The notes under the pieces: model-generated | Seen by the model: only the letters and a program-made list of their open reading frames with translations | Told to the model about the DNA's origin: nothing | Databases searched by the model: none | Translations under genes and position numbers: made by a program | Shown: piece by piece, positions 10,038 through 28,259 of the stretch | Layout: the number at the start of each line of letters is the position of its first letter | How positions within the stretch are numbered: the first letter of the stretch is position 1 | NCBI RefSeq assembly: GCF_035687085.1 | Contig: NZ_DASRYS010000014.1 | Coordinates: forward strand, 16,840 to 80,839 | Length of the DNA: 64,000 nucleotides | Origin: Hyphomicrobium sp. | GTDB lineage: Bacteria > Pseudomonadota > Alphaproteobacteria > Rhizobiales > Hyphomicrobiaceae | Reading direction: 5' to 3'

Positions 10038-11273
10038 TCACGTTGGAAAGGTGCGAGGCGCTCCTTGCAGTTGGGCACCTCCCCGGACCATAGAGAGGCC
10101 GATGTGCGCGGCGAGCGCGTGGCCCACCTCCGAAAAGCCTAGGCGCTCCAAGGATGCCGGCTCGCATCCTGGCGAGAACATCAGAACCGGAACCTGTTCG
10201 CGCGTGTGATCGGTCCCGTACCAAGTTGGATCGCACCCATGATCGGCTGTCAGAACGAGGAGATCATTGCGATTTAGCAGCGCGAGAAGTTCCGGCAGGC
10301 GGCGGTCGAACCTTTCCAGCGCGGCGGCATATCCGGTGACGTCGCGCCGATGGCCATAGAGCGAGTCGAAGTCGATGAAGTTAGCGACAAGCAGGCCGCC
10401 GTCGGCCAAGCTCTGAGTTGCCTCGAGCGTCCGATCGAATATCTCATCGTTGCCGTGCGCCTTGAAAACCCGCCCAGTGCCCGAATGCGCGAAGATATCG
10501 GCAATCTTACCGATGGTGGCGACATCCCGGTTTTCCTCCGACGCTTGATCCAAAAGCGTCGGCATGGGCGGCGGCAGGGAATAGTCGCGCCGGTTTCCCG
10601 TCCGCGTGAAATCTGCAGGTGTCGCCCCGGTGAACGGACGAGCAATGACGCGGCCTACCCGGTAGGGGTGGAGAAGCTCGCGCGCGAGCGTGCAAAGATC
10701 GTAAAGCCGGTCGAGCCCGAACGCCTCCTCGTGCGCCGCGATTTGGAACACGCTGTCCGCCGACGTGTAACAGATCGGCTGCCCCGTCCTTAAGTGCCTT
10801 TCGCCCAGCTGCGCTATGATCTCCGTTCCCGATGCGTGGCAATTCCCGAGCACACCGGAAATTCCGGCGCGCCGCGAAAATTCCGCAATCAGTTCGTCTG
10901 GAAAGCATGGGATGGTGCGGGGAAAATAACCCCAGTCAAACAGCACAGGTCCGCCTAACAGCTCCCAGTGGCCCGACGGCGTATCCTTGCCATAGGACGA
11001 TTCCGACGCGCAGCCGTAGCGGCCGAAAGCTTCGGGTGCGTCGAGGCCCGTCGGCGTGAACCCGGTGGCGAGCTTGCATGCCTTTCCAAGCCCGAGGCGG
11101 GTGAGGTTTGGAACGTTGAGCTGCCCCCGACGTCCTGCGGCGTCGCAGCGGCCCTCTCGGCAGGCTTCAGCGATGTGCCCGACTGTATTCGCTCCTGCAT
11201 CGCCGTAGCGCTCGGCATCCGGTGCGCCTCCGATGCCGACCGAGTCCAAGACGAGCAGCATAGCGCGCGGCAC
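10038..11273 (-). CDS. deoB: Phosphopentomutase
   Basis: [17 protein letters not shown] (phospho-Thr), [41 protein letters not shown]; 411 aa. Confidence 0.92.
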
Positions 11274-11291
11274 GGAACATATCCTTGCGTC

Positions 11292-12212
11292 TCAAGCGGC
11301 CTGCATCGCAGCTGGCTGCGCGATTGCCGCATTGTAGCGGCGGATCATCGATCCGCAGAACTCCGCGAATTCTTCAGCGACTAAAGGCGGGCTCGTGTGA
11401 TGAGGCGCCAAGCCCCGATGCTCGGGCGTAAAGCAGAAGGTCACAGTCACGTTGAAGTCGCTGAGGGCAGCCATCTGCCGGTCGAACCAAGCAAGCGCAT
11501 TTGGCCGGAAACTGTCAGCCCAGGACAACCCGGTGCGTACGTGTTTCACGCCGAGCCGCTTCATCCATACGACTGCATCTTCGAGACGATGATCTTCGTA
11601 GTGGAACCATTGGCAAAGGCCGAGCTCCGGTGTGAGGCTTGCAAATGTTTCCGCAGCCGGTTTCGGCGCGCCGTCCTCGCGCAAAATCCCCATATGGAAA
11701 TGTCGGTAATAGGAGGAGCCCTCGGCTTCCTTGTGCCGTGTCGTTGCTTCCCAGGTCTTGGGAAGATCGTAAAGGCTGTACCAATGGATGCGCTCGGTCA
11801 TGCCACTGAGCAGCTCAGCCGTTCGCTTCAGGCCCCAGTCTTGGACTTCGTCGGCTCCGAAGGACGATACGCCGACCTCAGTGACCCAAAGCGGCAGCTG
11901 GGTTACTGCGCGTATCTCGGCGAGCTTCGCAGGCCATTCGTCGATCGACCATAGATTCCAGTCGAGGGGGAAGCCATGCACCGCCACGACATCGACAGCA
12001 TCGAGGACGCCATAGCGTTCCATGCGGGTGATGAAGTTCGGATCGATCGGCGAGATCCCTCCGAGAACACGCTTCAAATGCGCGCTTTCCCGACGGATCG
12101 CACGCCCTGCGAGGACCGCCGTCTCACCGAAGCGCTGCCACTCAGGATCGAGCTCAGGGTCCCAGTGCGATTTGTTGTTGGGTTCGTTCCAAATCATAGC
12201 GGCTTCGATCAT
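11292..12212 (-). CDS. Clan GH-A glycoside hydrolase (beta-xylosidase-like), apparently circularly permuted
   Basis: WNEP acid/base motif at residues 8-11, AVHGFP, LWVTEVG nucleophile; LGVKHVRTGLSW and FCFTP lie at the C-terminus. Confidence 0.75.
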   Translation of the reverse strand: MIEAAMIWNEPNNKSHWDPELDPEWQRFGETAVLAGRAIRRESAHLKRVLGGISPIDPNFITRMERYGVLDAVDVVAVHGFPLDWNLWSIDEWPAKLAEIRAVTQLPLWVTEVGVSSFGADEVQDWGLKRTAELLSGMTERIHWYSLYDLPKTWEATTRHKEAEGSSYYRHFHMGILREDGAPKPAAETFASLTPELGLCQWFHYEDHRLEDAVVWMKRLGVKHVRTGLSWADSFRPNALAWFDRQMAALSDFNVTVTFCFTPEHRGLAPHHTSPPLVAEEFAEFCGSMIRRYNAAIAQPAAMQAA

Positions 12213-12967
12213 GTGGCACTCCGAGCGGGATACACGGGGGAATGAGCGGCGGGAGCACGCTGACGCCGGCAGATATAGACCTCCTGCTCAGGGTGTTCGA
12301 TGACGTCAAAGCCGGCGCTTCTCAGCATCGCTTCGCTGCATGCATGGTTCGGCACCCACCAATTGGTGGGATCGTTGGCGTAGCTGTGCTCGACGAAGTG
12401 CAGCTTCGGATATCCGGGTTGATCGAAGTGGTCGCTGCGCCAGAAATCGTAGTTAGCTGCCACGGGTTCGACATCGTCGGAGCCCCGCTGCATGGTTTGG
12501 AAAACAAGAATATCGCCTGCCACGTGCTCACGAATGAGATCGAGTGCGAGCAGCGGGTGCCGCAGGTGATAAAGCACACCCATAAAGAGGACGATTTCGA
12601 ACTGACGGCCGAGCCTGGCCACGTCGTAGACCGACAGTCTCTCGAACTCGATGTCCTCGCCCAATGTACGGGCGGCGAGACGCGCCTGAGCGAGATAGCG
12701 ATCGTCGAAGTCGATGCCAACGACTTCCTTTGCGCCGAGCCGCTTCATCTCAATCGAATAGAAGCCGGCATTACAGCCGATATCCAGCACGCTTCGGCCG
12801 CGCACTTGATCTTCAATGGCCGACTTGAAGCGCCGCCATTTTATCGAAGGATAGTCGCCCAGGGGATGATCCGGCGCTGTCTCCACCGCATCCAACTTCA
12901 TATTATGAAACCAAGGCCGGAGAGCCTCCACCTCGTGGCGCAACGCCTCGGGGGATGCGCCATGCAT
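12209..12967 (-). CDS. Class I SAM methyltransferase (TIGR04290-like, CmoB-related)
   Basis: WFHNM.L, VLDIGCNAGFYS, FEIVLFMGVLYHLRHPLLALD, DPTNWWVPN; start overlaps the upstream stop (TGATG). Confidence 0.85.
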   Translation of the reverse strand: MHGASPEALRHEVEALRPWFHNMKLDAVETAPDHPLGDYPSIKWRRFKSAIEDQVRGRSVLDIGCNAGFYSIEMKRLGAKEVVGIDFDDRYLAQARLAARTLGEDIEFERLSVYDVARLGRQFEIVLFMGVLYHLRHPLLALDLIREHVAGDILVFQTMQRGSDDVEPVAANYDFWRSDHFDQPGYPKLHFVEHSYANDPTNWWVPNHACSEAMLRSAGFDVIEHPEQEVYICRRQRAPAAHSPVYPARSAT

Positions 12968-13773
12968 CAGCATGCGTTATCTCTCCTCTCGATGGTCTCG
13001 CTTCTCGCCACTGGCTCGGGAGTTGGAGTTTCGGCCACCGCCTGATCCGTTCCAAGGTGCTTGAGCGCCTCGGTGGCATCGCGATAGCCGCGCGGCGTTC
13101 CAACATCCGCATACGCAGTGCCGATCCGGAAGCCGCGAGCCGTGCCGCCTTGCGCAAGATAAGCATTGATGAGTGTGCCCAGATACTCGTCCTGCCGGTT
13201 GCGTTGGAGCCAGAGCCGATGCAGTTCTTCAAAGACCTTCGCGGAGAGCTTGATCGCCCCCCAAACCCAGTTGGTCTCGGGCACTTCCTGTTTGACCTGA
13301 ATTTCAAGGACGTGCTGCTCGTCATCAAGGACAACGGCGTCAAAGAACTCCGGGTGTATTGAGGGAAATAATATGAATCCCAGCTCACACGGCGGAATGT
13401 CTAGGTATGCCGTTTCGGGGAACCAGATCGTGTCGGGAAGGCCAATGAGCACGTCTTCATGAGGCGCGATAAGCGGCGATGCCCTAAAGAGTGCATCACA
13501 GAGGCCGTTCGGATCCGCCTGGACGGCATAGACGACATCAGCGCTGCCGTAGTGACCACCGAAATATTCAAGGATGTCGGATTTCCCCGAAGAGATAATA
13601 AAGCAGAGCTTCTCTGCGCCACCGATGAGCATGCGCTGGAGGAGATATTCACTCACCGCTAGCGGCCGCTCGGCTCCGCCAGCCATCGAGCTGCCGAGAG
13701 GCAGAAGCTCCTTCGAAAAGCCCAATGGTTGCATACGCGTGCCGCGGCCGGCTGCTGGAATAATTCCCCACAT
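12967..13773 (-). CDS. Sugar-phosphate nucleotidyltransferase
   Basis: IIPAAGRGTRM, SKELLP, Q..PNGLCDA, GLPD, DVGT; 268 aa. Confidence 0.88.
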   Translation of the reverse strand: MWGIIPAAGRGTRMQPLGFSKELLPLGSSMAGGAERPLAVSEYLLQRMLIGGAEKLCFIISSGKSDILEYFGGHYGSADVVYAVQADPNGLCDALFRASPLIAPHEDVLIGLPDTIWFPETAYLDIPPCELGFILFPSIHPEFFDAVVLDDEQHVLEIQVKQEVPETNWVWGAIKLSAKVFEELHRLWLQRNRQDEYLGTLINAYLAQGGTARGFRIGTAYADVGTPRGYRDATEALKHLGTDQAVAETPTPEPVARSETIERRDNAC

Positions 13774-14864
13774 CAGGCAGACTCCGCGAATGCTTGCCGC
13801 TCAAGCGGCGCCTCCCAAAGAATTCGTAAAAGCTCGTCGGCACGATGATCTGACGTATGCGCTGCAAGTGTGCGTTCACGCGCCGCTTCACCAATTCTCG
13901 CAAGTTGCTGATCGGTGGCATCGAGCGCCTCCAGAACGTCCTGCTCGTTACGCACGAGCAGGACTTCGCGCCCTGGCTCATAAAAAGCGCTTATTCCCTC
14001 CCATGCATCTGACAGGATCGCAGTGCCGCACGCGGCAGCTTCGAAGAGCCGCCCGGATGGACACCAACCCGAACGCGCCATCGCCATGCGCGTAACGTTG
14101 AGCGTCAAACGGGATGACGCAAAGAAAGCGGGATGCTCCGTCGGCGGCAAATGGCGCACGAAATATAGATTTGCAAGCCAGGGGAAATTATCTGGATATT
14201 GCGCGCCGCCGATGAGGAAGCGAAGGTCTGTTCTCGCGGCAGCTGGCTTGAGAAATAGTTCCGTGAGTGCCGCCTGACGATCGTGCGCATAGGTTCCGAG
14301 GTACGAGAGATGCGAGCGATATTGGTACATGGCTGGAACCGGCCGATACTGCTTTGGGTCGACGTGCCCGTAGAGCGGGGCCACTCGCCGCGCTCCGAGT
14401 TCGCGCCGTAGCTCATCAAGCGTCTTGCCGCCGGTATAACTCAACACAAGATCGAATTGGGTTAGACCCTGCGGCCCGATATAGTCAACGTTCCGCCCAC
14501 TGCTGATTGCATCCAACGTCACCGGCGTATCGAGATCATAGAAAACAAGGAGGCCGCGAGCGTCTTCGGCCAGTCGCGCAGCGGCTACGGCGTCGGGGCA
14601 GTAGGAGGTAACGAGAATTGCATCCGCTTCAGCAATCTCCTGCTTTGCTTGCGCAAGGACGGTGTCCCAATCGCTGTAGATGACAAGATCACCGTAATCG
14701 ATGCCGGAGATGTCTCGCGAATCCGAATAATAGGGAACGTCACGCTCGAAAAACGTCACGGCGCAATGCCTTCGGTGCAAGGCATCGATCAGCCCACGCC
14801 AAAGTGTTGCATGGCCATTGCCCCACGATGACGACATCGAGAGGCCAAAGATGACAAGTTTCAA
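13773..14864 (-). CDS. CgeB-family glycosyltransferase
   Basis: SSSWGNGHATLWRGL, YDLDTPVT, YLGTYAHDRQ, PSGRLFEAAACG, SDAWEG; TTG start overlaps the upstream TGA. Confidence 0.85.
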   Translation of the reverse strand: MKLVIFGLSMSSSWGNGHATLWRGLIDALHRRHCAVTFFERDVPYYSDSRDISGIDYGDLVIYSDWDTVLAQAKQEIAEADAILVTSYCPDAVAAARLAEDARGLLVFYDLDTPVTLDAISSGRNVDYIGPQGLTQFDLVLSYTGGKTLDELRRELGARRVAPLYGHVDPKQYRPVPAMYQYRSHLSYLGTYAHDRQAALTELFLKPAAARTDLRFLIGGAQYPDNFPWLANLYFVRHLPPTEHPAFFASSRLTLNVTRMAMARSGWCPSGRLFEAAACGTAILSDAWEGISAFYEPGREVLLVRNEQDVLEALDATDQQLARIGEAARERTLAAHTSDHRADELLRILWEAPLERQAFAESA

Positions 14865-15442
14865 GCCGCAATCCTTTGGTCGAGCTCCATCTGGCCTGAA
14901 GGTTCGACCGCGATGGTCGTGATAGATCCGTAGGGCACATCGACGCGATTCCAATCGTCGAGCGGCAGCGACAAACAATGCAGGATGACCGCTCGAATGA
15001 GCTCAGCGTGCGTGACCATGATGATGGGCGCGGATGGATTGTCCGCTGCCGTCCGCCGGATATGATTCAGGATGCGCTCCTGAACCTCCATCATGGATTC
15101 GCCATCCGGCGCCCGCGCATTGGTGCGCTGCTCGTTCCACAGCCTCCAGGCGGGATCTCGGTCCAGAGACGCGAATGTGCGCCCCTGCCAGACGCCAAAG
15201 TCGACTTCGTCAAGTGCCGTGATTTTTGCGGCGATCCGGCCGGTCGCGAAGACATGAGGCGCAATCGTCTGAAGGCAGCGCCGGCGCGGGCTGGACTGCA
15301 GGATCGCATTGCGGGGCAATAGTCGCGTGAGGCTTGCCGCCTGCTTTTCGCCGCCTGCCGAGAGCGTGCATTCGGACCGGCCCGCCAAGTGGCGCATGCC
15401 GAAGTCAAACGCCGCATGCCGCACGAGGAAGCATACTGCCAT
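14861..15442 (-). CDS. Histidine phosphatase family protein
   Basis: LVRHA, SSPRRRCLQT, LDEVDFGVWQG, GES, VTHAELIR; 193 aa. Confidence 0.85.
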   Translation of the reverse strand: MAVCFLVRHAAFDFGMRHLAGRSECTLSAGGEKQAASLTRLLPRNAILQSSPRRRCLQTIAPHVFATGRIAAKITALDEVDFGVWQGRTFASLDRDPAWRLWNEQRTNARAPDGESMMEVQERILNHIRRTAADNPSAPIIMVTHAELIRAVILHCLSLPLDDWNRVDVPYGSITTIAVEPSGQMELDQRIAA

Positions 15443-15452
15443 GCTTTCTCCT

Positions 15453-16547
15453 TTAGGCGTCGCCCGCGACGAACTGCAAAGTGCGCTCGCGAGCCTCGCA
15501 ATCTTCGAACTGCTGCGGCGGAGACTTCATGAAGTAACTTGAGGGGCCGATGAGAGGACCTCCAATTCCCCGCTCCAGGGCTAGCTTCGCGCAGCGAACA
15601 GCATCAATCACAACCCCCGCAGAATTTGGCGAATCCCATACCTCGAGCTTTACCTCCGCGCTCAAAGGAACGCCGCCGAATGCCGTTCCCTCTAGCCGGA
15701 TGTAGGCAATCTTGCGATCAGTGAGCCATGGTACGTGATCGCTCGGACCGACATGTACATTCTCAGGCGCCGGTGGATCCTCGATCAGAGACGTTACTGC
15801 GCGGGTCTTCGATAGTTTCTTCGACTCAAGGCGCTCGCGCTCGAGCATATTCATGAAATCGGAGTTGCCTCCAAAGTTCAGCTGATACGTACGATCGAGC
15901 TGCACGCCGCGGTCACGAAAGAGGCTCGCGAGCGCCCGGTGGACGATTGTCGCTCCTACTTGGCTTTTGATGTCGTCGCCAATGAGCGGAATCCCGCGCT
16001 CGGTGAATTTCGCGGCCCAGCGGGGGTCTGAAGCAATGAAGACTGGTATGCAGTTGATGAACGCGCATCCGGCCGCCAACGATTGTTCGGCATAATATTC
16101 AGTCGCTCGCTGCGAGCCCACCGGCAAATATGAAACTAGGACATGGGTGCCGGTTTCCTCGAGCACCTCAGCCACCGTCACCGGCTCTTCGCAGGATTCC
16201 GGAATTTGGTCTTTTAGATATTTTCCAAGGCCATCGAATGTCGGGCCTCGCCGAACGCTGCAGCCTAGCTGCGGAACGGCCGCAAACTTCATAGTGTTGT
16301 TCGGCGCGACAGCAATTGCATCGGAAACGTCCTTGCCAACTTTGCCGGCGTGCACATCGAATGCGCTGGAAATTACGATGTCAGCAACGCTAACGCCTCC
16401 AATGTCAGCACTCATCAGACCCGGCATCGGCGTATTCCCGACATTGCTGCCGTAGTAAGTCAGGCCCTGGACGAATGAGGAGGCGCAATTGCCGACGCCG
16501 ACCAAACCGACGCGCACAGATCTTGATGAGGAGCAGTCTTTTGGCAT
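15453..16547 (-). CDS. ino1: Inositol-3-phosphate synthase
   Basis: [59 protein letters not shown]; 364 aa. Confidence 0.93.
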
Positions 16548-16585: not shown

Positions 16586-16610
16586 AACAATGGCTTTCTG
16601 GGTTGGTTCC
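16586..16610 (-). promoter_or_regulatory. Sigma-EcfG-type promoter for the ino1-to-deoB unit
   Basis: GGAAC-N16-TGTT, 38 nt upstream of ATG 16547. Confidence 0.6.
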
Positions 16611-16625: not shown

Positions 16626-16650
16626 GGAACTGAGGTTAGGCCGCGAGGTT
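16626..16650 (+). promoter_or_regulatory. Sigma-EcfG-type promoter for the divergent three-gene unit
   Basis: GGAAC-N16-GGTT, 36 nt upstream of ATG 16687. Confidence 0.6.
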
Positions 16651-16686: not shown

Positions 16687-16959
16687 ATGAGCGCATCTAG
16701 CGAGAAGACCACCGATCACAAGAAAATCCGGAAATGGATAGAGGAGCGCGATGGTCATCCTGCCGTCGTGAAAAGTACGGAAAGCGACGAGGGCGGCGTC
16801 CTGCGCGTGGATTTTCAAGAGCCTGATGAATCTCTCGAGGAGATCTCTTGGGATCGCTTTTTCGATATTTTCGATTCGAGGAAGCTGGCATTCCTTTACC
16901 AAGACACCTTGTCTGACGGTAAAAAGAGCCGGTTCAATAAATTTGTCTCCCGCGATTGA
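16687..16959 (+). CDS. Small conserved-looking hypothetical protein (90 aa)
   Basis: RBS GGAGGAG; TTDHKKIRKWIEERDGHPA, LRVDF, EEISWDRFF..F, LAFLYQD, SRFNKFVSR. Confidence 0.75.
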   Translation: MSASSEKTTDHKKIRKWIEERDGHPAVVKSTESDEGGVLRVDFQEPDESLEEISWDRFFDIFDSRKLAFLYQDTLSDGKKSRFNKFVSRD

Positions 16960-18702: not shown

Positions 18703-18713
18703 GAGGGGCCTCC

Positions 18714-19202: not shown

Positions 19203-20234
19203 AGCCGCCTCCTCGCCCGCACCGTTCAGCCCTCTTAAGGCCATCGCGGGAACCAATGTATTGACGCGATCCCATTCATGCCGCGTGGAGGCGAACCATT
19301 CGATGGTTTTGGTGAGGCCTTTGCGCAGCGGGACTTTCGGCGCCCATTCGAGCAATTCCTTGGCAAGTGCAATGTCAGGCTTGCGCCGGCGCGGATCGTC
19401 CACGGGCAGCGACTTATAAACGATCCGCGACGGCGAACCCGTGAGTTCTAGAACCGTTTGCACAAGCTCGCTCACGGTAATCTCGCTCGGGTTTCCGAGA
19501 TTAACAGGTGTGCGCACCGGGCTTGAATGAAATCCGAGCGCCAACAATCCTGATACGAGATCATCGAGATAGCAGAACGATCGGGTTTGGCTTCCGTCGC
19601 CGTATATCGAAATGTCGCTTCCCGACAGCGCCTGAGTGACCACATTGGAAACGACCCGGCCATCATCGGCGCGCATGCGAGGACCGTATGTGTTGAAAAT
19701 CCTAGCGACGCGGCAATCGACTTTGGCTGCGCGCATATAGTCGAAGGAAAGCGTTTCAGCTGCGCGTTTTCCTTCGTCGTAGCATGCGCGCGGCCCGATT
19801 GGATTGACGTTGCCGCAGTAGTCTTCCTTCTGCGGATGACGCAGCGGGTCACCATAAATCTCACTCGTCGATGCGAGCACGAACCGGGCCCCGAGATCGG
19901 ATGCCAGTGCTAGAAGGTTCCGTGTGCCCACGACGCTGGTCATCATCGTGTGAACCGGATCCGCTTGATAATGTGGAGGAGACGCGGCACAGGCGAGATT
20001 GAAAATCACATCGGCCCGAAGCGCCAAGGGCAATGGATCGATGATGTCCGCGTTGACGAGCCGAAAATTCGCCTCTCCGGCCAAATGTTTGAGATTGTCG
20101 GGCCGCCCACTCTGAAAGTTGTCTACGCCCACCACGTGGAAGCCGCGGCGGATGAGTGCATCGCAGAGATGCGATCCAATGAACCCGGCGGCACCGGCCA
20201 CAATAGCGTTCCGCATTTCGGCCTGTCTTGCCAT
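19197..20234 (-). CDS. UDP-glucuronate decarboxylase (UDP-xylose synthase)
   Basis: GAAGFIGSHL, LACAASPPHYQ, STSEIYGDP, YDEGKR, RIFNTYGPRM, DGRVVSN, QTRSFCY. Confidence 0.88.
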   Translation of the reverse strand: MARQAEMRNAIVAGAAGFIGSHLCDALIRRGFHVVGVDNFQSGRPDNLKHLAGEANFRLVNADIIDPLPLALRADVIFNLACAASPPHYQADPVHTMMTSVVGTRNLLALASDLGARFVLASTSEIYGDPLRHPQKEDYCGNVNPIGPRACYDEGKRAAETLSFDYMRAAKVDCRVARIFNTYGPRMRADDGRVVSNVVTQALSGSDISIYGDGSQTRSFCYLDDLVSGLLALGFHSSPVRTPVNLGNPSEITVSELVQTVLELTGSPSRIVYKSLPVDDPRRRKPDIALAKELLEWAPKVPLRKGLTKTIEWFASTRHEWDRVNTLVPAMALRGLNGAGEEAAL

Positions 20235-20252
20235 TCTCAAATCTCCACAAAC

Positions 20253-21380
20253 TCACGCCTGGTCCACTGAGGTCAGCTTTCCTTTTTGGTCCATCTTGGC
20301 GCGACTTTCATCGCGGCCACCGTCTGCAAACCAGTTTTCCAGTTCTATGGCACGCCAGTCTGAAGTGTGTTCAAGCAGCACCCGCTCTCTTGCCGCTTCG
20401 CCAATGCGGCGGCGATCTTCCGCGGGCATCTGCAGCACCCCCGTCACATGTTCGCTGCTCTCTGCAGTGACGATCTCCTGATCGGGAACGAAGAAGGCTT
20501 CCAGACCCGGCCAGTCGTCCGAGATTATGGGCGTCTCGCATGCGGCGGCCTCGAAGAGGCGGACACTTGGACTGAAGCCCGCTGTCCTCATATCTGCGCG
20601 GGTCAAATTCAGCGCCCATCCAAGGCTCGAATAAAATTCGGCGTGCTTTGACGGAGGCACGTGCTCAATTCGCTCCACGTTTTCCGGCCAGCGGATCGAG
20701 CTTGGATATTGCGCGCCAGCGACCACGAACGTCATTTCCGGCAGCTGGCGCGCAACTTCGTTTATGAAGCGCTCAACTCCGGGCTGACGGTCCGCACTGT
20801 AGGTTCCGATATATCCAAGATCCCAGCGCTTGCGCGTGAGCTGTGGCTTGTAGATTGTCGTATCGACAGAGCAATAGAGAGCGAGCGCCGACCGAGCGCG
20901 CCATTTATCGACCAGAAGCTTGAGCGTTGGTCCACCGGTGAATGAGAAGTAGCAGGCGTATTGCCGAACTTGTGCGGGCGACAAGTACGTGCAGGTGCCC
21001 CGGGCAAGAGCGCTCAAGGTGACAGGCGTGTCGATGTCGTAGAACGCGATCTTGCCGCGGGCGACGCGGAACACCCAATCCGCAACTGCGATCCCGTCCG
21101 GCACGAACGAGCCGATGATCACCAAGTCCGCCGAGGCGATCTCCCTCTTCCAATCCTCTAAGCCCGCCAGGCCATCGTAGAAGTGGAGTTCGCAGCACGC
21201 GGGTCCGATCAGGTCTCGGTTGGCGGCGTACCACGGGACATCGCGCTCCAGGAACATTACACGATGACCGCGATCCGATAGGCTGCGAATGAGCGCGCGA
21301 TAGGTGGTGGCATGGCCATTCCCCCAAGCGGACGAAAGGCTCAATCCCAAGATGACGATGCGCAAAGAACGCCTCTTCAT
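20253..21380 (-). CDS. CgeB-family glycosyltransferase
   Basis: SSAWGNGHATTYRAL, YDIDTPVT, YIGTYSADRQ, PSVRLFEAAAC; 375 aa. Confidence 0.85.
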   Translation of the reverse strand: MKRRSLRIVILGLSLSSAWGNGHATTYRALIRSLSDRGHRVMFLERDVPWYAANRDLIGPACCELHFYDGLAGLEDWKREIASADLVIIGSFVPDGIAVADWVFRVARGKIAFYDIDTPVTLSALARGTCTYLSPAQVRQYACYFSFTGGPTLKLLVDKWRARSALALYCSVDTTIYKPQLTRKRWDLGYIGTYSADRQPGVERFINEVARQLPEMTFVVAGAQYPSSIRWPENVERIEHVPPSKHAEFYSSLGWALNLTRADMRTAGFSPSVRLFEAAACETPIISDDWPGLEAFFVPDQEIVTAESSEHVTGVLQMPAEDRRRIGEAARERVLLEHTSDWRAIELENWFADGGRDESRAKMDQKGKLTSVDQA

Positions 21381-22471
21381 GCCACCGCCTGCTGATCTTT
21401 CGCCGCAACCAATTCGCTCAGGACGCGGTCCACAATCTGTGCCCTCTGATTATACGTATGTTCGCGAAGAACGCGCCTTCTTGCTCCTTCCCCGATCTGC
21501 CGCGCACGTTGCGGCGTGAGCGATGCCAGCGCTCTCGCGACATCGCGAGCGTCATTGATGACGATCACTTCTTCACCTGGCGTCAGAAATTCTGAGATGC
21601 CCTCCCAGCCGTCCGTCATCAGGCATGCACCTGCTCCTGCAGCTTCGAACACGCGCGTTGCAGGAGAGAACCCTGTGGTTGCCATCGATTTGCGTGAAAT
21701 GTTGATCACAGCGAGCGGCGAGCAATTGAACGCGTTGTGATCCCGAGTCGAGAGGTGTCCGATGAATTCGACATTCGGAGGCAGTTGCCATGGCTCCCAG
21801 CCCGATCCTGCTAGAAGGAATTTGCGGTGAGGCAGAAGGCGTGCGGCCTCGAAGAAGAACGCATCGACGCGCGCTTCGCGATCTGGCAGGCGATTGCCAA
21901 GAAATGCGAGATCGGCGGTGAAGCGCGACTGCGGCGCGACTGGAAAGTGCGTCTCAGGGTCGAGCGCGTTATAAATCGGCACACACCGGCGCGCGCCAAC
22001 ACGCCGATAGGCTTCGACGACCGGGGATCCGCCGCCATAGGTCAAGACGCAGTCCAAACGCTTCAACGCGGCGCGAAGCGGGTGCCGCGTGTCGCCATCG
22101 ATCTCCGCCAGGGTTGCCGGTGCGTCGACGTCCCAGAAAATTCCGAGCTTTCCCTTCGCGGCTTCGGCGACCGTGGCTGCAAGGATCTCATTATCAAGTG
22201 CGCCGACGCCGCTTGCTTTGACGATAATGTCGGCGCCGGCTGCGTGCCGGAAGGCTGCCTGCATCGCCTCAACTGTTGGCTCATAGACAACGACCTCGGC
22301 CCAATCCGGCGGGTCCATGTCGCGGTGCTGTTGGCGGTCAAAGGCATCCGGCTCATAGAACGTGATGCGATAGCCTTGCCGTGCAAGGGCGGCGATGATT
22401 CCACGGTAGTACGTCGCGGCGCCGTTCCAATAGCTCGACAGCAGGCTGGAACCGAAGAACGCAATGTGCAT
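21377..22471 (-). CDS. CgeB-family glycosyltransferase
   Basis: SSYWNGAATYYRGI, WDVDAPAT, FLGNRLPDRE, PATRVFEAAGAG; start MHIAFFG coupled to the upstream stop. Confidence 0.85.
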   Translation of the reverse strand: MHIAFFGSSLLSSYWNGAATYYRGIIAALARQGYRITFYEPDAFDRQQHRDMDPPDWAEVVVYEPTVEAMQAAFRHAAGADIIVKASGVGALDNEILAATVAEAAKGKLGIFWDVDAPATLAEIDGDTRHPLRAALKRLDCVLTYGGGSPVVEAYRRVGARRCVPIYNALDPETHFPVAPQSRFTADLAFLGNRLPDREARVDAFFFEAARLLPHRKFLLAGSGWEPWQLPPNVEFIGHLSTRDHNAFNCSPLAVINISRKSMATTGFSPATRVFEAAGAGACLMTDGWEGISEFLTPGEEVIVINDARDVARALASLTPQRARQIGEGARRRVLREHTYNQRAQIVDRVLSELVAAKDQQAVA

Positions 22472-23589
22472 CAGGCTGCTCCCTTCAACCGGGGCCGGAT
22501 CTGCTCCGCGATGGCGAGAAGCTCGCTGGCACGGTGAGCGCACGTGTGCTTATTTCTGATGGTCTCCAGGCCGTTGGCGGCAAGCTCGCGCCGCAGGCCG
22601 GCATCGTTCGCAAGGGCGCGCATGGCGCTCGCCATATCCGTCTCACTTGAAGCCGTAAGGAAGTCCTCGCCCGCGCGGAACAGGTTTTCAGAATCTTCCC
22701 ATGGTGCGCAGACGAGCGGCAAACCGCAGGCCAGCGCTTCGAAGACGCGGATGGTCGGAATGCCAGGAAGAAACTTCACGTAATAGCGTCTTGGCACATG
22801 AACGGTGAAAAGGTGCCGCGCGAATATCTCCGGAACCCGATCGTTCGCACTCCAACCGTGATATTCGGCGCCATGCGCGTGCAGAGCTTCGATGGCCTCA
22901 TCGGGATATCGCACCCCATGCACGTCAAGCTTGACCTGCGCATCGCGTGCCGGCCGCAATAGGTAGGCGCCAAGCTCCTCACTGCGTTCTCCATCGCCCC
23001 AGTTGCCGATCCATACGGCCCCTGAGCGCATCTGGTTCTCGTTTCTATCAGGCGATGTGGCAAGGCGAACGTCGGCTGCTTCATGAAAGACGAAGACGCG
23101 ATTGCCCCAACCCGCGCGTGCATAGACGTCGGCAAGTGATTGCCCGAAGGCGAGCACGCCGTCGTAGCCCGACAAGTCCATCTTGTTGATAGCGCGAGGA
23201 TCGCTTACTGCCCGGTGATGCGTGTCATGAAAAAGAAGCGTGAACGCCGCGCCGCGCTTTTTCTTGTCACCGAGCGCCGTCACTATCTCAGGCGCTGTCC
23301 ACTCGTGCACGATGACGAGATCCGCGTCCGCGATTGCAGGTAGGATGTCCATCGAAGAGTCATAGGTTGCAATCGCACCAGCCAGGTCGGGAAACCGAGC
23401 CGCAAATCGCGAGAGAGTTCCTGGACCCTGCTCCGCTTCGAGATTTTCTCGGCTCCAACTCCTTTCAGGCTCGAGGGCAAGCACATCGTGGCCGCGGCCG
23501 GCGAGTTCGCGGAGCAAACCGCGCAGGAAATGCGCGTTTCCGTGGTTCCAACAAGAAACAAGCGAATGCGTGAGATAGACGATCCTCAT
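22471..23589 (-). CDS. CgeB-family glycosyltransferase
   Basis: VSCWNHGNAHFLRGL, HDTHHRA, WIGNWGDGERS, PTIRVFEALACG; 372 aa. Confidence 0.85.
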   Translation of the reverse strand: MRIVYLTHSLVSCWNHGNAHFLRGLLRELAGRGHDVLALEPERSWSRENLEAEQGPGTLSRFAARFPDLAGAIATYDSSMDILPAIADADLVIVHEWTAPEIVTALGDKKKRGAAFTLLFHDTHHRAVSDPRAINKMDLSGYDGVLAFGQSLADVYARAGWGNRVFVFHEAADVRLATSPDRNENQMRSGAVWIGNWGDGERSEELGAYLLRPARDAQVKLDVHGVRYPDEAIEALHAHGAEYHGWSANDRVPEIFARHLFTVHVPRRYYVKFLPGIPTIRVFEALACGLPLVCAPWEDSENLFRAGEDFLTASSETDMASAMRALANDAGLRRELAANGLETIRNKHTCAHRASELLAIAEQIRPRLKGAA

Positions 23590-24725
23590 GCGCCGGCCTC
23601 CAGCTGAACAAGCGGTGGTGCGCGCGCGGCGAGGACGCGTGAGTAAATGTTCATCGTCTCTGCGCCCATGCGCTCGGCTGAATAGGCTCGCGATCTCTCG
23701 GCAGCGGCTGCCGCGAGCACCGCACGCTCATCCGGCGACGCCATGAGACGTAAAATGGTCTCCGCGAGTTCGGCAGGATCGTCGGGATCTATGAAGAGCG
23801 CAGCGCCATCCCAGAGCTCGCGAAAGGTCGAAATGTCGGACAAAACGAGGGCTACGCCGGCTTGAGCGGCCTCGAGCACCGCGAGGCCAAAGGGCTCATA
23901 TTTCGACATGCTGACGAACACCGCGGCGCGCCGGTACCATTCCTGCATCTCGTCATGAGCTAGCGCGCCAAGCAGGGAAAGATGCGAGAGATCGGCCGTC
24001 TCGCCGTTGGGCCCGTTTTGCGGCCCAGCCGCATAGATCTTTCTTCCGCTGAGCCTTGCGGCTTCACCAACCACCCGAAGGTTTTTTCCGGCATCCCACA
24101 GACGGCCGGCCGTGAACACAACATCCGCTCTGTTGATCGGCGCTGTCGCAGGAGAAAGCGTTCGTCCATTATGGACAGCCGTGATGGGCGTGACCGCACC
24201 GTACAGCGCAGCCAAGTCACGCGCGAATGACGCGCTCGGCGCTATGACCGCATCGGCCAAGGTCAATCCGACTCCAGTTCTTCGCGCGCGCCAGGCGAGA
24301 TCCGGCGGCATCGCACCTTTTCCAGCGTGCGCCCACCACGTTCCAACGCAGGAGTGAGCAGAAATGGTCAAAGGCACATCCCACTCCTTCAATCCGGCTT
24401 GAGCTGGCGCATTGAGGTGAACGATATCGGCGCTCCACTCGCGGGCGCGATCCTGCAGCTCGGCGGCGGTGACATCGAGTTCGCCTTCTGACGCCGCTGT
24501 CCAGTCGAGCGGCAAACGACTGACCTCGAGCGACGCGGCACCCGCGCGTCGTGCCGCCTTCTCTTGCAACCGGCTGGGCGGGGGACCGAGAACGCAAATC
24601 CGCACTTCGACATCGTTGCCGCTCAGATAGTTCGTGAGTTCCAACGCGTAGGTCCAAACTCCGCCCACGGTGTCCGAAGTCATGAAGACGCGTTTCGGCA
24701 ACGGCGTGCGGGAGTTCAGCGGCAC
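23586..24725 (-). CDS. Glycosyltransferase family 4
   Basis: DTVGGVWTY, AGRLWDAGKN, YEPFGLAVLEAA (EX7E), SDISTFRELW; 379 aa. Confidence 0.88.
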   Translation of the reverse strand: MPLNSRTPLPKRVFMTSDTVGGVWTYALELTNYLSGNDVEVRICVLGPPPSRLQEKAARRAGAASLEVSRLPLDWTAASEGELDVTAAELQDRAREWSADIVHLNAPAQAGLKEWDVPLTISAHSCVGTWWAHAGKGAMPPDLAWRARRTGVGLTLADAVIAPSASFARDLAALYGAVTPITAVHNGRTLSPATAPINRADVVFTAGRLWDAGKNLRVVGEAARLSGRKIYAAGPQNGPNGETADLSHLSLLGALAHDEMQEWYRRAAVFVSMSKYEPFGLAVLEAAQAGVALVLSDISTFRELWDGAALFIDPDDPAELAETILRLMASPDERAVLAAAAAERSRAYSAERMGAETMNIYSRVLAARAPPLVQLEAGA

Positions 24726-25999
24726 GTCGCCTCCAGTTCTTCCAGCGGCAACGGATGCGCATCCTGGATGTCACTGAAGCGAGAGAATTGTTCCAGATAA
24801 TAGCTGTGTGCTCGTTCCCAGGCGTTCTCATCTGGCTCGCCGAACAGGCGCCTATAGTCGGGCGAGCTGGGGTATGGATAAAGCGGCACCGGATCATTGG
24901 CCCAGACGCCGGCATTTCGAAGCTGCTCGCGCCAGCGGGTGACCATATCCGCTTCGTCACCAGCCATGTTGATCAGGTTCGCCTGGACGAATGGAATGTG
25001 TTGGCGCGCTTTTATCAGCAGCGTTGCCAATTCATCGGTGGTCAGGCGGCACTTCTTACCTAGCGCGTTACGTCCCTCTTCCGTCAAACTTTCGACACCT
25101 GCTTCGACAGAGACGCAGCCTGCTTGACCAAGAAGCGCGAGCATGTCGGGTTTCCAGAGATCGATGCGCGTTTGAACTCCGAATTCAACATCTCGCTCTA
25201 CGAGTGCTTCGAGAAGCGGACGATTGGGAAGAAAAATCTCGTCGATGAAATAGATGTACGTCACGCCCTGCTGCAGCAGGCCGTCGATCTCATCGAGTAG
25301 GATCGGCAGCTCGCGGCGGCGGTAGCGATCTCGGAAATCAATCTTCGCGCAGAAGGTGCATGCGTATGGGCAGCCGCGCGAGGCTTCCACCTCGGCGCCG
25401 GGACCGTCGGGCGTACGATCGAACCTGTGGTGATGATGGCCGTGCGGGTGGATATAGCAATCGTCCCACCGAAGGGCGGGCGCATCTACAAATTTTGCTG
25501 CTTGGGGCGCACCACGAACTTCGATCGCGTCCCCTGATTTGATTGCGATGCCGGTCACATTCTCGAGCTCGCTTTCTGCGAGCGCGGCGACGGTTTCCTC
25601 GCACTCTCCGCGCACTGCAATGCCGGCGTTGAGTTTCAGAAGCGTGGTTCTCGGCGTCACGGAAGCATGCGGGCCGACCACAACCCGCTTCCCTCCCCGA
25701 GTGCCAAGGAGATCGAGAAATTCGCGCGGAATGGAAAGTTCCGGCGGGGCACAGCGCCAGAAAAGGTACGACGGCGCGGTGGTGACCACGGTCATGTCAG
25801 GAGAAAAGGCGGAAACTTTATCCGCTATTTCGCCGTTCGAGAGGGACAAAAGGGGCCCGTCGACCAGAAGAGTTGCGTGCCCGCTTCGCTCCAGCAGGGA
25901 CTTGCTATAGGCGAGTTCGAGCGGCAGGTGCGGCGCGGTGCAGCCGAAGTAAGTGCTGCCTTCGAAACTCCACGCGGGATTTATCAATGCCACTTTCAT
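24716..25999 (-). CDS. Radical SAM protein with a B12-binding-like N-terminal domain (TIGR04295-like)
   Basis: EASRGCPYACTFC (CxxxCxxC), FIDEIF, QTRIDLW, EAGVES; start ATG overlaps the upstream TGA. Confidence 0.85.
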   Translation of the reverse strand: MKVALINPAWSFEGSTYFGCTAPHLPLELAYSKSLLERSGHATLLVDGPLLSLSNGEIADKVSAFSPDMTVVTTAPSYLFWRCAPPELSIPREFLDLLGTRGGKRVVVGPHASVTPRTTLLKLNAGIAVRGECEETVAALAESELENVTGIAIKSGDAIEVRGAPQAAKFVDAPALRWDDCYIHPHGHHHHRFDRTPDGPGAEVEASRGCPYACTFCAKIDFRDRYRRRELPILLDEIDGLLQQGVTYIYFIDEIFLPNRPLLEALVERDVEFGVQTRIDLWKPDMLALLGQAGCVSVEAGVESLTEEGRNALGKKCRLTTDELATLLIKARQHIPFVQANLINMAGDEADMVTRWREQLRNAGVWANDPVPLYPYPSSPDYRRLFGEPDENAWERAHSYYLEQFSRFSDIQDAHPLPLEELEATCR

Positions 26000-27093
26000 C
26001 GCGCATCTCCCGCGATCATTGCGTCGTCGCGACGTGGTGGGGGGCGCGCCTCCTTCAGCCATTGCGCCAGGAGAGACACACCGGTCTTCCAGGGCGTCGG
26101 CGGCGAAAGCTCGATCTTGCTTCGAAGGCTGCGTGTGTCGGAGACGTAGTAGCGTTGGTCACCGGCTCGCCAGTGGCTGTGACTTATCTCTAAAGGACGG
26201 CCGACGATCCGACCGATATGGTTCAGGACCTGAATCAGGCTCACCGCGTTTTCGGGGCCGCCCCCGACGTTGAAGGCTCTGCCCGCAACAAACGACGGCC
26301 TCTCGATCGCGCGCGCGTAGACCTCCGTGGTGTCCTCGACGAACATCACGTCTCGCACTTGCCGGCCATCGCCATAGATCGTGATCGGCGCCCCTTGCAG
26401 AGCTTTGATGAGAAAATGCGCGACCCAGCCCTGATCTTCAGTTCCCAGTTGCCGTGGACCATAGATGCAGCTCATTCGGAACACCGCTGCGGGTACACCT
26501 AGCGTTCTCGCGTAATCGAGCACGTATTGATCAGCGGCGCCCTTGGAGCAGCCGTATGGGGTGTGGAATGACAGGGGACGCGATTCGCCGATGCCGTGAG
26601 CGCGCAGATGCTCGTCAGCGGGGCGATACGCCAGACGCGTCTGCTCGAGTTCAACCTCGGCCAAATCGCCGTAGACTTTGTTCGTGCTTGCGAACAGGAA
26701 CGTCGGCGGCTTGCAGCAAGAGCGGGCCGCCTCAAGCAAATTCAATGTTCCGCGTACGTTGATGTCGAAGTCTTCTAACGGCCGTTCGATGCTCGTCGTG
26801 ACCGCCACTTGCGCGGCGAAGTGCACAACGGCGGAAGCTTGTGTGACGGCTTCCGCAGCGGCTTCGTTGCGCACGTCCGTTATCAGCACAGAGATGTTGC
26901 GGGGGTGGAGGCGCTTCAGTTCAGCGGCATTTTCCTCGACACCCGGCCGCGCTAACGAGTCAATGACGAGGACTTTTTTCCCGCTCCTTGCCAACCGGTT
27001 CGCGAGATTGGAGCCAATGAAGCCTGCGCCGCCGGTGATCAACACCGGATTTTCTTTTTCTCCGATCACAGCAGGTGCAACGACTGCTTTCAC
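25996..27093 (-). CDS. NAD-dependent epimerase/dehydratase (CDP-tyvelose/paratose 2-epimerase-like)
   Basis: TGGAGFIG, FAAQVAVTTS, STNKVYG, YGCSK, RMSCIYGPRQ.G.EDQGWVAHF. Confidence 0.85.
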   Translation of the reverse strand: MKAVVAPAVIGEKENPVLITGGAGFIGSNLANRLARSGKKVLVIDSLARPGVEENAAELKRLHPRNISVLITDVRNEAAAEAVTQASAVVHFAAQVAVTTSIERPLEDFDINVRGTLNLLEAARSCCKPPTFLFASTNKVYGDLAEVELEQTRLAYRPADEHLRAHGIGESRPLSFHTPYGCSKGAADQYVLDYARTLGVPAAVFRMSCIYGPRQLGTEDQGWVAHFLIKALQGAPITIYGDGRQVRDVMFVEDTTEVYARAIERPSFVAGRAFNVGGGPENAVSLIQVLNHIGRIVGRPLEISHSHWRAGDQRYYVSDTRSLRSKIELSPPTPWKTGVSLLAQWLKEARPPPRRDDAMIAGDAR

Positions 27094-28196
27094 GCCACCA
27101 GCCCCCGTGCTTCGAGTTCGGCTCGCGCTTCATTGACGCGATCGAGTGCGCGTTGCGTCTTCACCCATTCGACGAGTTCGCCAAGCGACTCTTCGAGCCG
27201 GCGTTTGGGCTTGTAGCCTAGAGCTGCCTCGGCATGGGTGATGTCAGCGAAGCAGTGACGGATATCGCCGAACCGCGCCTGATCGAGAACTTCAGGAGCT
27301 ATATCTGCGCGCCCCATCGCTTGGCCGAGTTTCTCCGCCACATCGTAGACTGAGTAACTGAGGCCACTTCCTATGTTGAAGACATCACCGTCGATGCCGG
27401 ACTGCTGCAGGGCGGCGAGAAAGGCAGACGTCACGTCTTCGACGTGAACGAAATCCCGGCGTTGCTGACCGTCTTCGAAGACAAGGGGCGGCTTGCCGTT
27501 GAAAAAGCGCGATGCAAAGATCGCGAGAACGCCGGTGTATGGATTGGAAAGCGCCTGACCTGGTCCAAACACGTTGAAGAGCCGAAGCGCGCATCCTTCC
27601 ATGCCGTGCGCTTTCGCGAGAAGCAGGGTCATTCGCTCCTGCGAATATTTGGTCAGCGCGTAAACCGATGCGAGCGTCGGGCGCTTGCTTTCCGGCGTGG
27701 GGATCGGCTCCAGCGGATAACCATTGCGATCCACTGGATCCCAAGATTTGCCAGCGCCGTAAGCACGCTCCACGTCTTCAACGAGCGATCCGTCGTGAGC
27801 GCGGTAGAGACCTTCGCCATAGATGCTCATCGACGAAGCGACGACGATCCGGCGAACGGGGGAACGCGAGAGTTCCTCCATCAAGACAGCCGTTCCGACG
27901 TCATTAACACTGACGTACTGCTCGACAGCGTACATACTTTGGCCGACGCCAACCTCGGCCGCGAGATGAACTACAGAGTCGACGCCTTTGAGCGCCTTGC
28001 GTACAGAATCGACGTTGCGAACGTCGCCGCGGAGGAATTGTACGTCGTCGGTTAGCGCAATATCTTCATTGCCATGAACTTGCTCGATCATGGAATCGAG
28101 GACGACGACGTCATGTCCTTGGGCCAGGAGAGCTCGGCACATATGCCGCCCGATAAAGCCTGCTCCTCCGGTCACGAGCACCTTTTCTCTCGACAC
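27090..28196 (-). CDS. NAD-dependent epimerase/dehydratase
   Basis: TGGAGFIG, LAAEVGVGQSMY, SSMSIYGEG, YALTK, RDFVHVED; GTG start after RBS AGGAG. Confidence 0.88.
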   Translation of the reverse strand: MSREKVLVTGGAGFIGRHMCRALLAQGHDVVVLDSMIEQVHGNEDIALTDDVQFLRGDVRNVDSVRKALKGVDSVVHLAAEVGVGQSMYAVEQYVSVNDVGTAVLMEELSRSPVRRIVVASSMSIYGEGLYRAHDGSLVEDVERAYGAGKSWDPVDRNGYPLEPIPTPESKRPTLASVYALTKYSQERMTLLLAKAHGMEGCALRLFNVFGPGQALSNPYTGVLAIFASRFFNGKPPLVFEDGQQRRDFVHVEDVTSAFLAALQQSGIDGDVFNIGSGLSYSVYDVAEKLGQAMGRADIAPEVLDQARFGDIRHCFADITHAEAALGYKPKRRLEESLGELVEWVKTQRALDRVNEARAELEARGLVA

Positions 28197-28234
28197 GCAA
28201 TGCTCCTGATGCCGTGGGTTTTGTTCACAAGGGC

Positions 28235-28259
28235 AATCCGGAGCTAGGAGGTAAGTTCC
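28235..28259 (-). promoter_or_regulatory. Possible sigma-EcfG-type promoter for the epimerase-to-UXS unit
   Basis: GGAAC-N16-GATT, 38 nt upstream of GTG 28196. Confidence 0.5.

Follow-up and report, generated by a model that had tools for sequence, protein, structure and literature searches.

We analysed a 64,000-nucleotide stretch of a Hyphomicrobium sp. genome (hereafter the window; assembly GCF_035687085.1, contig NZ_DASRYS010000014.1, positions 16,840 to 80,839 of the forward strand), in which positions 10,038 to 28,259 hold 18 genes and the motifs that head them. The block comprises the complete rhizo-twelve cassette, a conserved orphan system that is enlarged here by six accessory genes. 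Specific to the window are the layout in three transcription units inside a stress island, the six accessory genes, and the missing gene for UDP-glucose dehydrogenase (ugd). A link of the cassette to the general stress response is well supported. As to its function, we put at about 0.5 the probability that the core and the accessory block make a small soluble cytoplasmic glycoside or oligosaccharide under stress; this product is probably a small methylated sugar chain on inositol, kept inside the cell.

Families were assigned by NCBIfam, Pfam and Protein Data Bank (PDB) sequence searches of the 18 proteins (Table 1). The B12-binding radical S-adenosylmethionine (SAM) protein and a SAM-dependent methyltransferase, whose genes lie 11.7 kb apart, score above the curated cutoffs of TIGR04295 and TIGR04290, respectively, and the block is thus the rhizo-twelve cassette as the databases define it. 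An earlier reading made from the sequence alone (the sequence-only reading) had proposed this neighbourhood, and our hidden Markov model (HMM) check bears it out. All 18 open reading frames (ORFs) were found in the ORF listing at the coordinates that it had claimed, and the gene content that it had described was recovered as four PF13524 (CgeB-type) glycosyltransferases and one GT4 glycosyltransferase, short-chain dehydrogenases/reductases (SDRs), an NTP_transferase protein, phosphatases, Ino1, and DeoB. Its clan GH-A hydrolase and its fusion of a phosphoribosyltransferase (PRTase) with a kinase have no Pfam or NCBIfam match, and both are backed by fold evidence. As it said, the cassette encodes its own Ino1 and sugar-nucleotide tailoring enzymes. 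Export machinery is absent from the 18 genes.

The three transcription units and their overlapping stop and start codons were likewise borne out by junction analysis with the likeliest start codons. The junctions measure -4, -4, -10, -4, -1, -4, and +12 nt in unit 1 and +10, about -4, -1, -7, -4, and +18 nt in unit 3; in unit 2, the genes for p559 (the PRTase/kinase fusion) and the HAD-IIIA phosphatase share 4 nt (ATGA), and the HAD gene converges with that of the UDP-xylose synthase (UXS)-like enzyme with a 6-nt overlap. The epimerase-like gene epi1 starts with GTG at 28196. The longest radical SAM ORF runs from 26062, with a likely start at ATG 25999 and a TIGR04295 alignment that begins at residue 23, and that of CgeB-b runs from 22543, with a likely start at 22471 that overlaps the upstream stop by 1 nt. 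The start of CgeB-d is uncertain (TTG 14864 or ATG 14837; longest ORF from 14978). The G+C content is 59.5% in the cassette and 61.2% in the genome. No paper on the product or enzymology of the cassette was found in our literature search, in which only the Methylorubrum extorquens array supplement was informative.

Table 1. Genes and promoter motifs of the cassette, in window coordinates
Feature	Position	Strand	Unit	Evidence or remark
EcfG-like motif GGAAC-N16-GATT	28235..28259	-	1	about 40 nt upstream of GTG 28196
epi1, extended SDR, NDP-sugar 4-epimerase-like, insert of about 40 aa	27090..28196	-	1	PF01370 E 3.4e-54
epi2, CDP-tyvelose 2-epimerase-like SDR	25996..27093	-	1	PDB 9rl0 E 2.9e-78, 1orr E 1.6e-73
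B12-binding radical SAM protein (rSAM), TIGR04295	24716..25999	-	1	681.5 bits, cutoff 400, full length 1-422
GT4 glycosyltransferase	23586..24725	-	1	PF13439 and PF13692
CgeB-like glycosyltransferase a	22471..23589	-	1	PF13524 E 1.3e-34
CgeB-like glycosyltransferase b	21377..22471	-	1	PF13524 E 2.9e-37
CgeB-like glycosyltransferase c	20253..21380	-	1	PF13524 E 1.4e-36
UDP-glucuronate decarboxylase (UDP-xylose synthase, UXS)-like SDR	19197..20240	-	1	human UXS1 structures E 1.6e-108, 366 bits
EcfG-type promoter GGAAC-N16-GGTT	16626..16650	+	2	36 nt upstream of ATG 16687
90-aa acidic protein	16687..16959	+	2	no family match in NCBIfam, Pfam, PDB searches
p559	17023..18702	+	2	predicted N-terminal helical region, PRTase-like Rossmann domain (VVDEGPGRSGSS loop), C-terminal choline-kinase/APH-fold domain
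HAD-IIIA phosphatase (GmhB/histidinol-phosphatase-like)	18699..19202	+	2	TIGR01662 45.9 bits, cutoff 44.6
EcfG-like motif GGAAC-N16-TGTT	16586..16610	-	3	about 40 nt upstream of ATG 16547
Ino1, myo-inositol-1-phosphate (inositol-3-phosphate) synthase	15453..16547	-	3	PDB 1gr0 (M. tuberculosis Ino1) E 7.3e-138
Histidine-phosphatase superfamily enzyme (HisPhos)	14861..15442	-	3	PF00300 (His_Phos_1) E 3e-33
CgeB-like glycosyltransferase d (accessory)	13773..14864	-	3	PF13524 E 1.1e-40
Sugar-1-phosphate nucleotidylyltransferase, NTase (accessory)	12967..13773	-	3	PF00483; weak GlmU, AglF, RmlA model matches
SAM-dependent methyltransferase (MT), TIGR04290	12209..12973	-	3	373 bits, cutoff 300
Predicted circularly permuted clan GH-A-like TIM-barrel protein (GHlike)	11292..12212	-	3	permutation, AlphaFold2 (AF2) model, Foldseek
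DeoB phosphopentomutase (lineage-specific accessory)	10038..11273	-	3	NF003766 514 bits, cutoff 256

Comparison with other genomes separates a core from an accessory set. When one genome per species was searched with the radical SAM protein, more than 560 relatives were found, and synteny was determined on the best 80 loci by tblastn with the 18 proteins. These loci, mostly from Methylobacterium, Methylorubrum, Beijerinckiaceae, Lichenihabitans, Acetobacteraceae, Azospirillum, and Mesorhizobium, show one recurrent 12-gene string, which Methylorubrum and many others of them carry in full: epi1-epi2-rSAM-GT4-CgeBa-CgeBb-CgeBc-UXS-Ino1-HisPhos-MT-GHlike. The identical twelve, with matching order and lengths, are META1_0137-0148 of M. 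extorquens AM1 in the microarray supplement of PMC4814048. The core is thereby epi1, epi2, the B12-radical SAM protein, GT4, CgeB-a, -b, and -c, the UXS-like enzyme, Ino1, the histidine phosphatase, the TIGR04290 methyltransferase, and the GH-A barrel, and the accessory six are CgeB-d, NTase, DeoB, p559, the HAD-IIIA phosphatase, and the 90-aa protein. Since the same twelve occur in Methylorubrum and M. extorquens, Ino1, the histidine phosphatase, UXS, and the glycoside hydrolase (GH)-like protein are canonical and not an expansion. The sequence-only reading, which took the making of its own inositol to be what expands this version, was mistaken on this point: Ino1, the histidine phosphatase, the methyltransferase, and the GH-like protein all belong to the conserved twelve. 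All 12 core proteins of the window are 40 to 76% identical to their Methylorubrum orthologues, and the two cassettes are alike in the sub-orders epi1-epi2-rSAM-GT4-CgeBabc-UXS and Ino1-HisPhos-...-MT-GH, in the solubility of the proteins, and in the EcfG link. Unlike the M. extorquens cassette, the one described here has three units instead of one string, six extra genes, and an assembly without ugd. Even within the genus of the window, only 2 of 25 genomes have TIGR04295, which makes the distribution patchy; the nearest cassette relatives are metagenome-assembled genomes (MAGs) labelled Hyphomicrobiaceae and Methylovirgula.

The accessory genes differ widely in how often they accompany the core. 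Orthologues were counted over 50 TIGR04295-bearing genomes, 43 of which have Ino1 as a single copy with 61 to 73% identity (the seven without it are Acetobacterales and Rhodopila). An NTase orthologue is present in 29 and p559 in 25, usually 2 to 3 kb from the NTase gene, and orthologues of the 90-aa protein (41 to 60% identity) adjoin the cassette in 12 related loci. DeoB, which at 10038..11273 is the sole copy in this genome, lies inside the cassette in only three others (G068, G073, and G088): it ends the Ino1-module operon in G068 and G073 and forms the one-strand order NTase-DeoB-CgeB_d in G088. The HAD phosphatase occurs elsewhere only beside p559 in G073, and we rejected it as a general partner of p559, the pair being seen only there and in this genome (G000). 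The expectation that the ino1, deoB, and PRTase genes accompany the core thus held for Ino1 and, in half of the genomes and usually linked, for the PRTase/kinase, but not for DeoB inside the cassette. Over the same genomes, p559 co-occurs with DeoB (22/25 with p559 versus 12/25 without; Fisher p 0.005) and with Ino1 (25/25; p 0.01), neither value being corrected for phylogeny. DeoB feeding NTase as a general rule was rejected, as seven genomes have NTase without DeoB (Fisher p 0.22). In G073 (L100, 12832-15875), an extra GT4-type glycosyltransferase gene and an extra SAM methyltransferase gene stand between those for GHlike and DeoB on the same strand, a larger variant of the cassette.

The stress link proposed by the sequence-only reading is supported by an island of EcfG-type promoters, two PhyR loci, retention of the motif in related loci, and the M. 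extorquens ecfG arrays. The EcfG consensus of M. extorquens is GAAC-N16,17-C/GGTT (PMC4814048). The claim that all three units have an EcfG-like motif at their head stands for unit 2, whose motif fits this consensus, but the motifs of units 1 and 3 are each one -10 base off. The strict form GGAAC-N16/17-CGTT has no match at any of the three heads, and a scan for sigma-70 promoters and terminators gave no sigma-70-like promoter at the three heads and nothing useful at the unit boundaries. In related loci, where the motif was defined as GGAAC-N15-18-NGTT within 300 nt upstream of a gene, it precedes epi1 in 23/75, Ino1 in 13/39, and the small gene (that of the 90-aa protein) in 9/11 loci but internal genes in 0/91. 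The motif upstream of Ino1 is the canonical CGTT form in the closest relatives (L055 and L064), and Mesorhizobium and the closest relatives retain it at about -50 to -85. The 19 kb around the block contain nine consensus sites, where the density over the whole genome predicts 0.74. Only this local crowding is striking; over the genome as a whole, the strict motif is weakly enriched (97 sites versus 52 to 89 for control patterns). The window holds five strict sites, against 1.0 expected, four of them at 3455(-), 4557(+), 7358(+), and 9981(-), and each of the nine consensus sites precedes a regulon-typical ORF (isochorismatase-like, YciF-like, DUF1003-like, or a small secreted protein). The first 28 kb of the window is a general-stress island. 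Two PhyR-family genes score above the cutoff (359 and 339 bits), and an ECF-sigma-like gene lies next to each of them. In the ecfG1 ecfG2 double mutant and the sextuple ecfG mutant of M. extorquens, all twelve orthologues are reduced 1.4- to 3.1-fold (PMC4814048 S2 Table).

The surroundings of the block can be described briefly. Positions 1-10040 of the window carry a manganese-catalase-like gene (1342-2211, -), an isochorismatase-like gene (2811-3446, -), a YciF/DUF892-like gene (about 4611-5183, +), genes for a YihY-like membrane protein, a DUF1003-like protein, and SDRs, and two genes for small secreted Gly/Pro/Ser-rich proteins (7415-7747, +, and 9639-9947, -). Farther away, the gene for a 139-aa single-domain response regulator, a typical signalling component of the general stress response, has a strict EcfG motif immediately before it, at 44791-44816 (-). 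The cassette of the Methylovirgula genome G088 (L101, 1-9600) is flanked by genes for isochorismatase, DUF6496, ATP-dependent DNA ligase, and topoisomerase IB, which is typical stress-island content, and has a gene for an amino-acid-permease-family membrane protein between NTase and Ino1.

Several core enzymes could be placed further by their matches. The best PDB matches of epi1 are UDP-hexose and UDP-uronate 4-epimerases, each aligned in two stretches, and the radical SAM protein carries a CPYACTFC motif (CxxxCxxC). GT4 is closest to the phosphatidylinositol mannosyltransferase PimA (E 1e-8, C-terminal domain only). The PDB sequence search gave no relative for CgeB-a, and CgeB-d is a paralogue of CgeB-c with 42% identity. 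Ino1 scores 510 bits with TIGR03450, under the mycothiol-type cutoff of 638, and the best PDB match of the histidine phosphatase is the glucosyl-3-phosphoglycerate phosphatase GpgP (E 8.5e-13). The HAD-IIIA protein has the DVDGT motif and reaches 47 bits with the PRK08942 GmhB model, under that model's cutoff.

The most conserved protein of the cassette is the GH-like one, with 60 to 81% identity across phyla. Its orthologues all begin with MIEAxxxWNEPNN, which is the acid/base motif normally found after strand 4, and both WNEPN (E10) and W(V/I)(T/S)E (E112) are invariant among them. In BLASTP against an unpermuted paralogue (L082:8013-10004), residues 7-184 of the GH-like protein correspond to residues 111-288 (E 2e-29) and residues 198-290 to residues 5-99 (E 7e-9), and the swapped order of the two segments indicates that the protein is circularly permuted. 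The AF2 model is an eight-stranded barrel with a predicted local distance difference test (pLDDT) score of 86, and a Foldseek search with it gave partial matches to GH10, GH2, GH128, GH5, and GH53. Taken together, this is a predicted circularly permuted clan GH-A barrel with both Glu motifs of that clan's retaining hydrolases, whose acid/base and nucleophile Glu follow strands 4 and 7, respectively. In L082 (Rhodopila), the normal-order paralogue is fused N-terminally to epi2, the CDP-tyvelose-2-epimerase-like SDR, in one 663-aa ORF, which ties the barrel functionally to epi2 and the glycan module. A nonpermuted paralogue also stands between epi1 and epi2 in L088 and L038. An orthologue in an alphaproteobacterial MAG (L044:18936-19817) has two in-frame stops and may be a pseudogene or reflect a sequencing error.

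Neither the sequence nor the family profile of p559 matched any entry in Pfam, NCBIfam, or the PDB. The family numbers at least 468 proteins, for which the only source name shown is "hypothetical protein." The AF2 model has a pLDDT of 91. With its C-terminal half, Foldseek found LicA choline kinase (E 1.4e-6) and, further, ethanolamine, homoserine, methylthioribose (MTR), and glucosamine kinases and aminoglycoside phosphotransferase (APH) enzymes; K304, D446, and D466 are invariant or nearly so and fit the pattern of ATP-binding Lys, catalytic Asp, and metal-binding Asp. The C-terminal domain is thus predicted to have the bilobal fold of choline/APH-type small-molecule kinases. The middle domain resembles uracil PRTase weakly (E 0.01 over 164 columns), and its motif VVDEGPGxSGSS (VVDEGPGRSGSS), like the loop that binds phosphoribosyl pyrophosphate (PRPP), is conserved. 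Of the metagenome loci with a p559 relative, 39 span at least 8 kb; 11 of these 39 carry at least one cassette gene alongside, and in three of the 11 (L163, L170, and L181), NTase, CgeB_d, and p559 occur together with no other cassette gene nearby. Distant relatives of p559 (about 30% identity) have unrelated neighbours such as SH3_3, a TetR regulator, and an aminotransferase, and the family as a whole is by these heterogeneous neighbours ruled out as cassette specific. An SH3_3-domain gene lies immediately upstream on the same strand in L125, L139, L158, and L176, which suggests a second, unrelated context for the family, and the aminotransferase gene lies upstream of the relative in L119.

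The proposed UDP-xylose donor could be upheld only in part. The UXS-like SDR is clearly homologous to UDP-xylose synthases (Table 1), carries the STSEIYGD and YDEGK motifs, and is encoded by an intact gene, but the donor is uncertain because the assembly has no UDP-glucose dehydrogenase. In 22 contigs with an estimated completeness of 99.98%, TIGR03026 (UDP-glucose/NDP-sugar dehydrogenase) had no match at E 1e-20 or better, PF00984 had no match, and tblastn with the Ugd of a same-genus genome and of G088 gave a best E of 0.2. At least one such dehydrogenase is present in all 53 other cassette genomes tested. The absence may reflect an assembly gap or a true loss; UDP-glucuronate may have another route (the p559/NTase pair is a candidate for salvage), or the UXS-like enzyme may act on another substrate. 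For a route from inositol through glucuronate to UXS, myo-inositol oxygenase (MIOX) had no match in the genome, yet the control genomes likewise had none.

From these assignments, a pathway can be proposed in which inositol would be the scaffold. Ino1 would convert glucose-6-phosphate to inositol phosphate, which GT4 would glycosylate, and the GpgP-like histidine phosphatase would then strip the phosphate, following the synthase/phosphatase logic of glucosylglycerate and mycothiol formation. CgeB-a to -c would lengthen the chain with NDP-sugars, which the three SDRs (4-epimerase-like, CDP-tyvelose-2-epimerase-like, and UXS-like) would remodel. The TIGR04290 enzyme would methylate the product, the B12-radical SAM protein could carry out C-methylation or other radical tailoring, and the GH-A barrel might trim, transglycosylate, or recycle the product. 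In the accessory branch, the p559 kinase, the HAD-IIIA phosphatase, and DeoB would supply a sugar-1-phosphate, probably a pentose-1-phosphate, with the PRTase-like domain possibly holding a phosphoribosyl-type substrate for the kinase; NTase would turn the sugar-1-phosphate into an NDP-sugar, and CgeB-d would transfer it as an extra residue. No hydrophobic or membrane-like stretch is present in any of the 18 proteins, and without any membrane protein, the product is argued to be cytoplasmic, where it may serve as a desiccation protectant. More speculatively, and at well under even odds, the product could represent a new class of stress-induced, cytoplasmic, inositol-anchored, methylated, and radical-SAM-tailored hetero-oligosaccharides, to which a lineage-specific extra pentose would be added via p559/GmhB-like HAD/DeoB, NTase, and a CgeB-like glycosyltransferase and for which the permuted GH-A barrel would be a biosynthetic transglycosylase, not a hydrolase.

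A number of findings weigh against such a single soluble inositol glycoside. No product or assayed enzyme is known for any cassette copy, the similarities of GT4 to PimA and of the phosphatase to GpgP are weak, NTase is present independently of DeoB, and the missing dehydrogenase, the off-consensus -10 bases of units 1 and 3, and the unrelated contexts of distant p559 relatives point the same way. The cassette can also come apart into a glycan module (epi1 to CgeB/UXS) and an inositol module (Ino1 to GHlike): the acetobacteraceal locus L041 has epi1-epi2-rSAM-GT4-CgeBa-CgeBb only, followed by unrelated genes; a Chloroflexia MAG has p559 | HisPhos-GHlike(64%)-two unknowns-MT-CgeBc-b-a-GT4; and an Abditibacteriaceae MAG (L095) has p559 | RidA-GHlike(60%)-MT-Ino1(67%). 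TIGR04295 is encoded by neither of these two MAGs. The methyltransferase and the GH-like protein, with Ino1 and the glycosyltransferases, are thus the parts that range most widely, and the radical SAM protein is dispensable in some lineages. Because the modules occur apart or alone, they possibly do not make one molecule. The main rival to the single product is accordingly that co-regulated neighbours make two, with Ino1, the phosphatase, the methyltransferase, and the GH-like protein (and p559) giving a methylated inositol derivative, such as an O-methyl-inositol osmolyte or glycoside, and epi1, epi2, radical SAM, GT4, and CgeB (and UXS) giving a different glycan. It draws on the Abditibacteria locus with Ino1, MT, GH, and p559, the Chloroflexia locus without a radical SAM gene, the glycan-only L041, the seven Acetobacterales and Rhodopila genomes without Ino1, and the separate transcription of the two modules in the window. 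We nevertheless consider two products unlikely, since all 12 Methylorubrum genes form a single co-directional string, the methyltransferase and the GH-like protein accompany the CgeB glycosyltransferases in Chloroflexia, and the nonpermuted GH paralogue is fused to epi2 in Rhodopila.

The other rivals have much less in their favour. The abundance of glycosyltransferases, epimerases, and UXS recalls surface-glycan loci, and the only PDB sequence match of the GH-like protein is PslG, an exopolysaccharide hydrolase (E 0.06), which could point to a cell-envelope polysaccharide (a side chain of lipopolysaccharide, capsule, or exopolysaccharide) with an exporter encoded elsewhere. This is improbable, as the 18 proteins include no priming transferase, flippase, polymerase, exporter, or membrane or signal segment, the conserved 12-gene form has no such membrane or export gene either, the cassette spans very different envelope types from Alphaproteobacteria to Chloroflexia, and Ino1 with a phosphatase is unusual for surface-glycan loci. 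Slightly less probable again is the glycosylation of a macromolecule, by analogy with the role of CgeB in the spore crust and possibly with the 90-aa acidic protein as the target. The four CgeB-type glycosyltransferases fit this, as does the small protein, whose gene has its own EcfG promoter, is a neighbour of the cassette in 12 loci, and stands first in the epi1 operon of G068 and G073; however, it is missing from most cassette loci, including Methylorubrum, and Ino1, the phosphatase, and the sugar-phosphate enzymes indicate small-molecule chemistry. A bioactive pseudo-oligosaccharide for competition, an aminoglycoside-like cyclitol glycoside, seems to us the least probable of all. A cyclitol synthase, glycosyltransferases, B12-radical SAM and methyltransferase enzymes, and PRTase-like and phosphatase genes do recall aminocyclitol pathways, and the PDB entry that ranks second for Ino1 is a five-membered-cyclitol-phosphate synthase (E 2.5e-60), but Ino1 is far closer to true myo-inositol-phosphate synthase (MIPS; E 7e-138), no aminotransferase, resistance gene, or exporter is among the 18 genes, and the cassette, very widely distributed and conserved, is part of the general stress regulon and not of a strain-specific island.

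The pathway we favour, a methylated sugar chain built on inositol, has parallels in known systems. Like GpgS/GpgP in glucosylglycerate synthesis and MshA plus a phosphatase in mycothiol synthesis (with Ino1 upstream), the cassette would combine an Ino1-supplied phosphorylated acceptor with a GT-B glycosyltransferase and a histidine-superfamily phosphatase, GpgP being the closest solved relative of the latter. These similarities are weak and sequence based, and unlike those systems, the cassette adds four to five further glycosyltransferases, a methyltransferase, a radical SAM protein, and a glycosidase-like barrel. For the mycobacterial polymethylated polysaccharides (MGLP), the MMP cluster consists of a mannosyltransferase, methyltransferases, and a hydrolase. 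In general make-up, the cassette is alike in having cytoplasmic glycosyltransferases, SAM methyltransferase(s), and a dedicated glycoside hydrolase that would work on a small primer, but the primer would here be inositol and not glucosylglycerate, and B12-radical SAM and pentose-related enzymes are added. The accessory block, with its APH/choline-kinase-fold p559, GmhB-like HAD-IIIA, NTP_transferase, and dedicated glycosyltransferase, mirrors the NDP-heptose triad (anomeric kinase, GmhB, and nucleotidyltransferase) and AmgK/MurU (APH-fold anomeric kinase plus nucleotidyltransferase). It differs from them in the extra PRTase-like domain of p559, which matches no known family, in the HAD score under the GmhB cutoff, and in the addition of DeoB.

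In conclusion, this cassette is found in hundreds of bacteria of soils, leaf surfaces, lichens, and deserts that belong to several phyla, and Alphaproteobacteria have put it under the control of the general stress response. The window holds a particularly rich variant, and because M. extorquens is tractable and has the orthologous operon, the question of the product can be tested there directly. If identified, the product would join trehalose, glucosylglycerate, and methylated polysaccharides as a new glycoside for protection or storage and would give functions to several orphan families: TIGR04295, TIGR04290, the CgeB-like glycosyltransferases, the permuted GH-A barrel, and p559.

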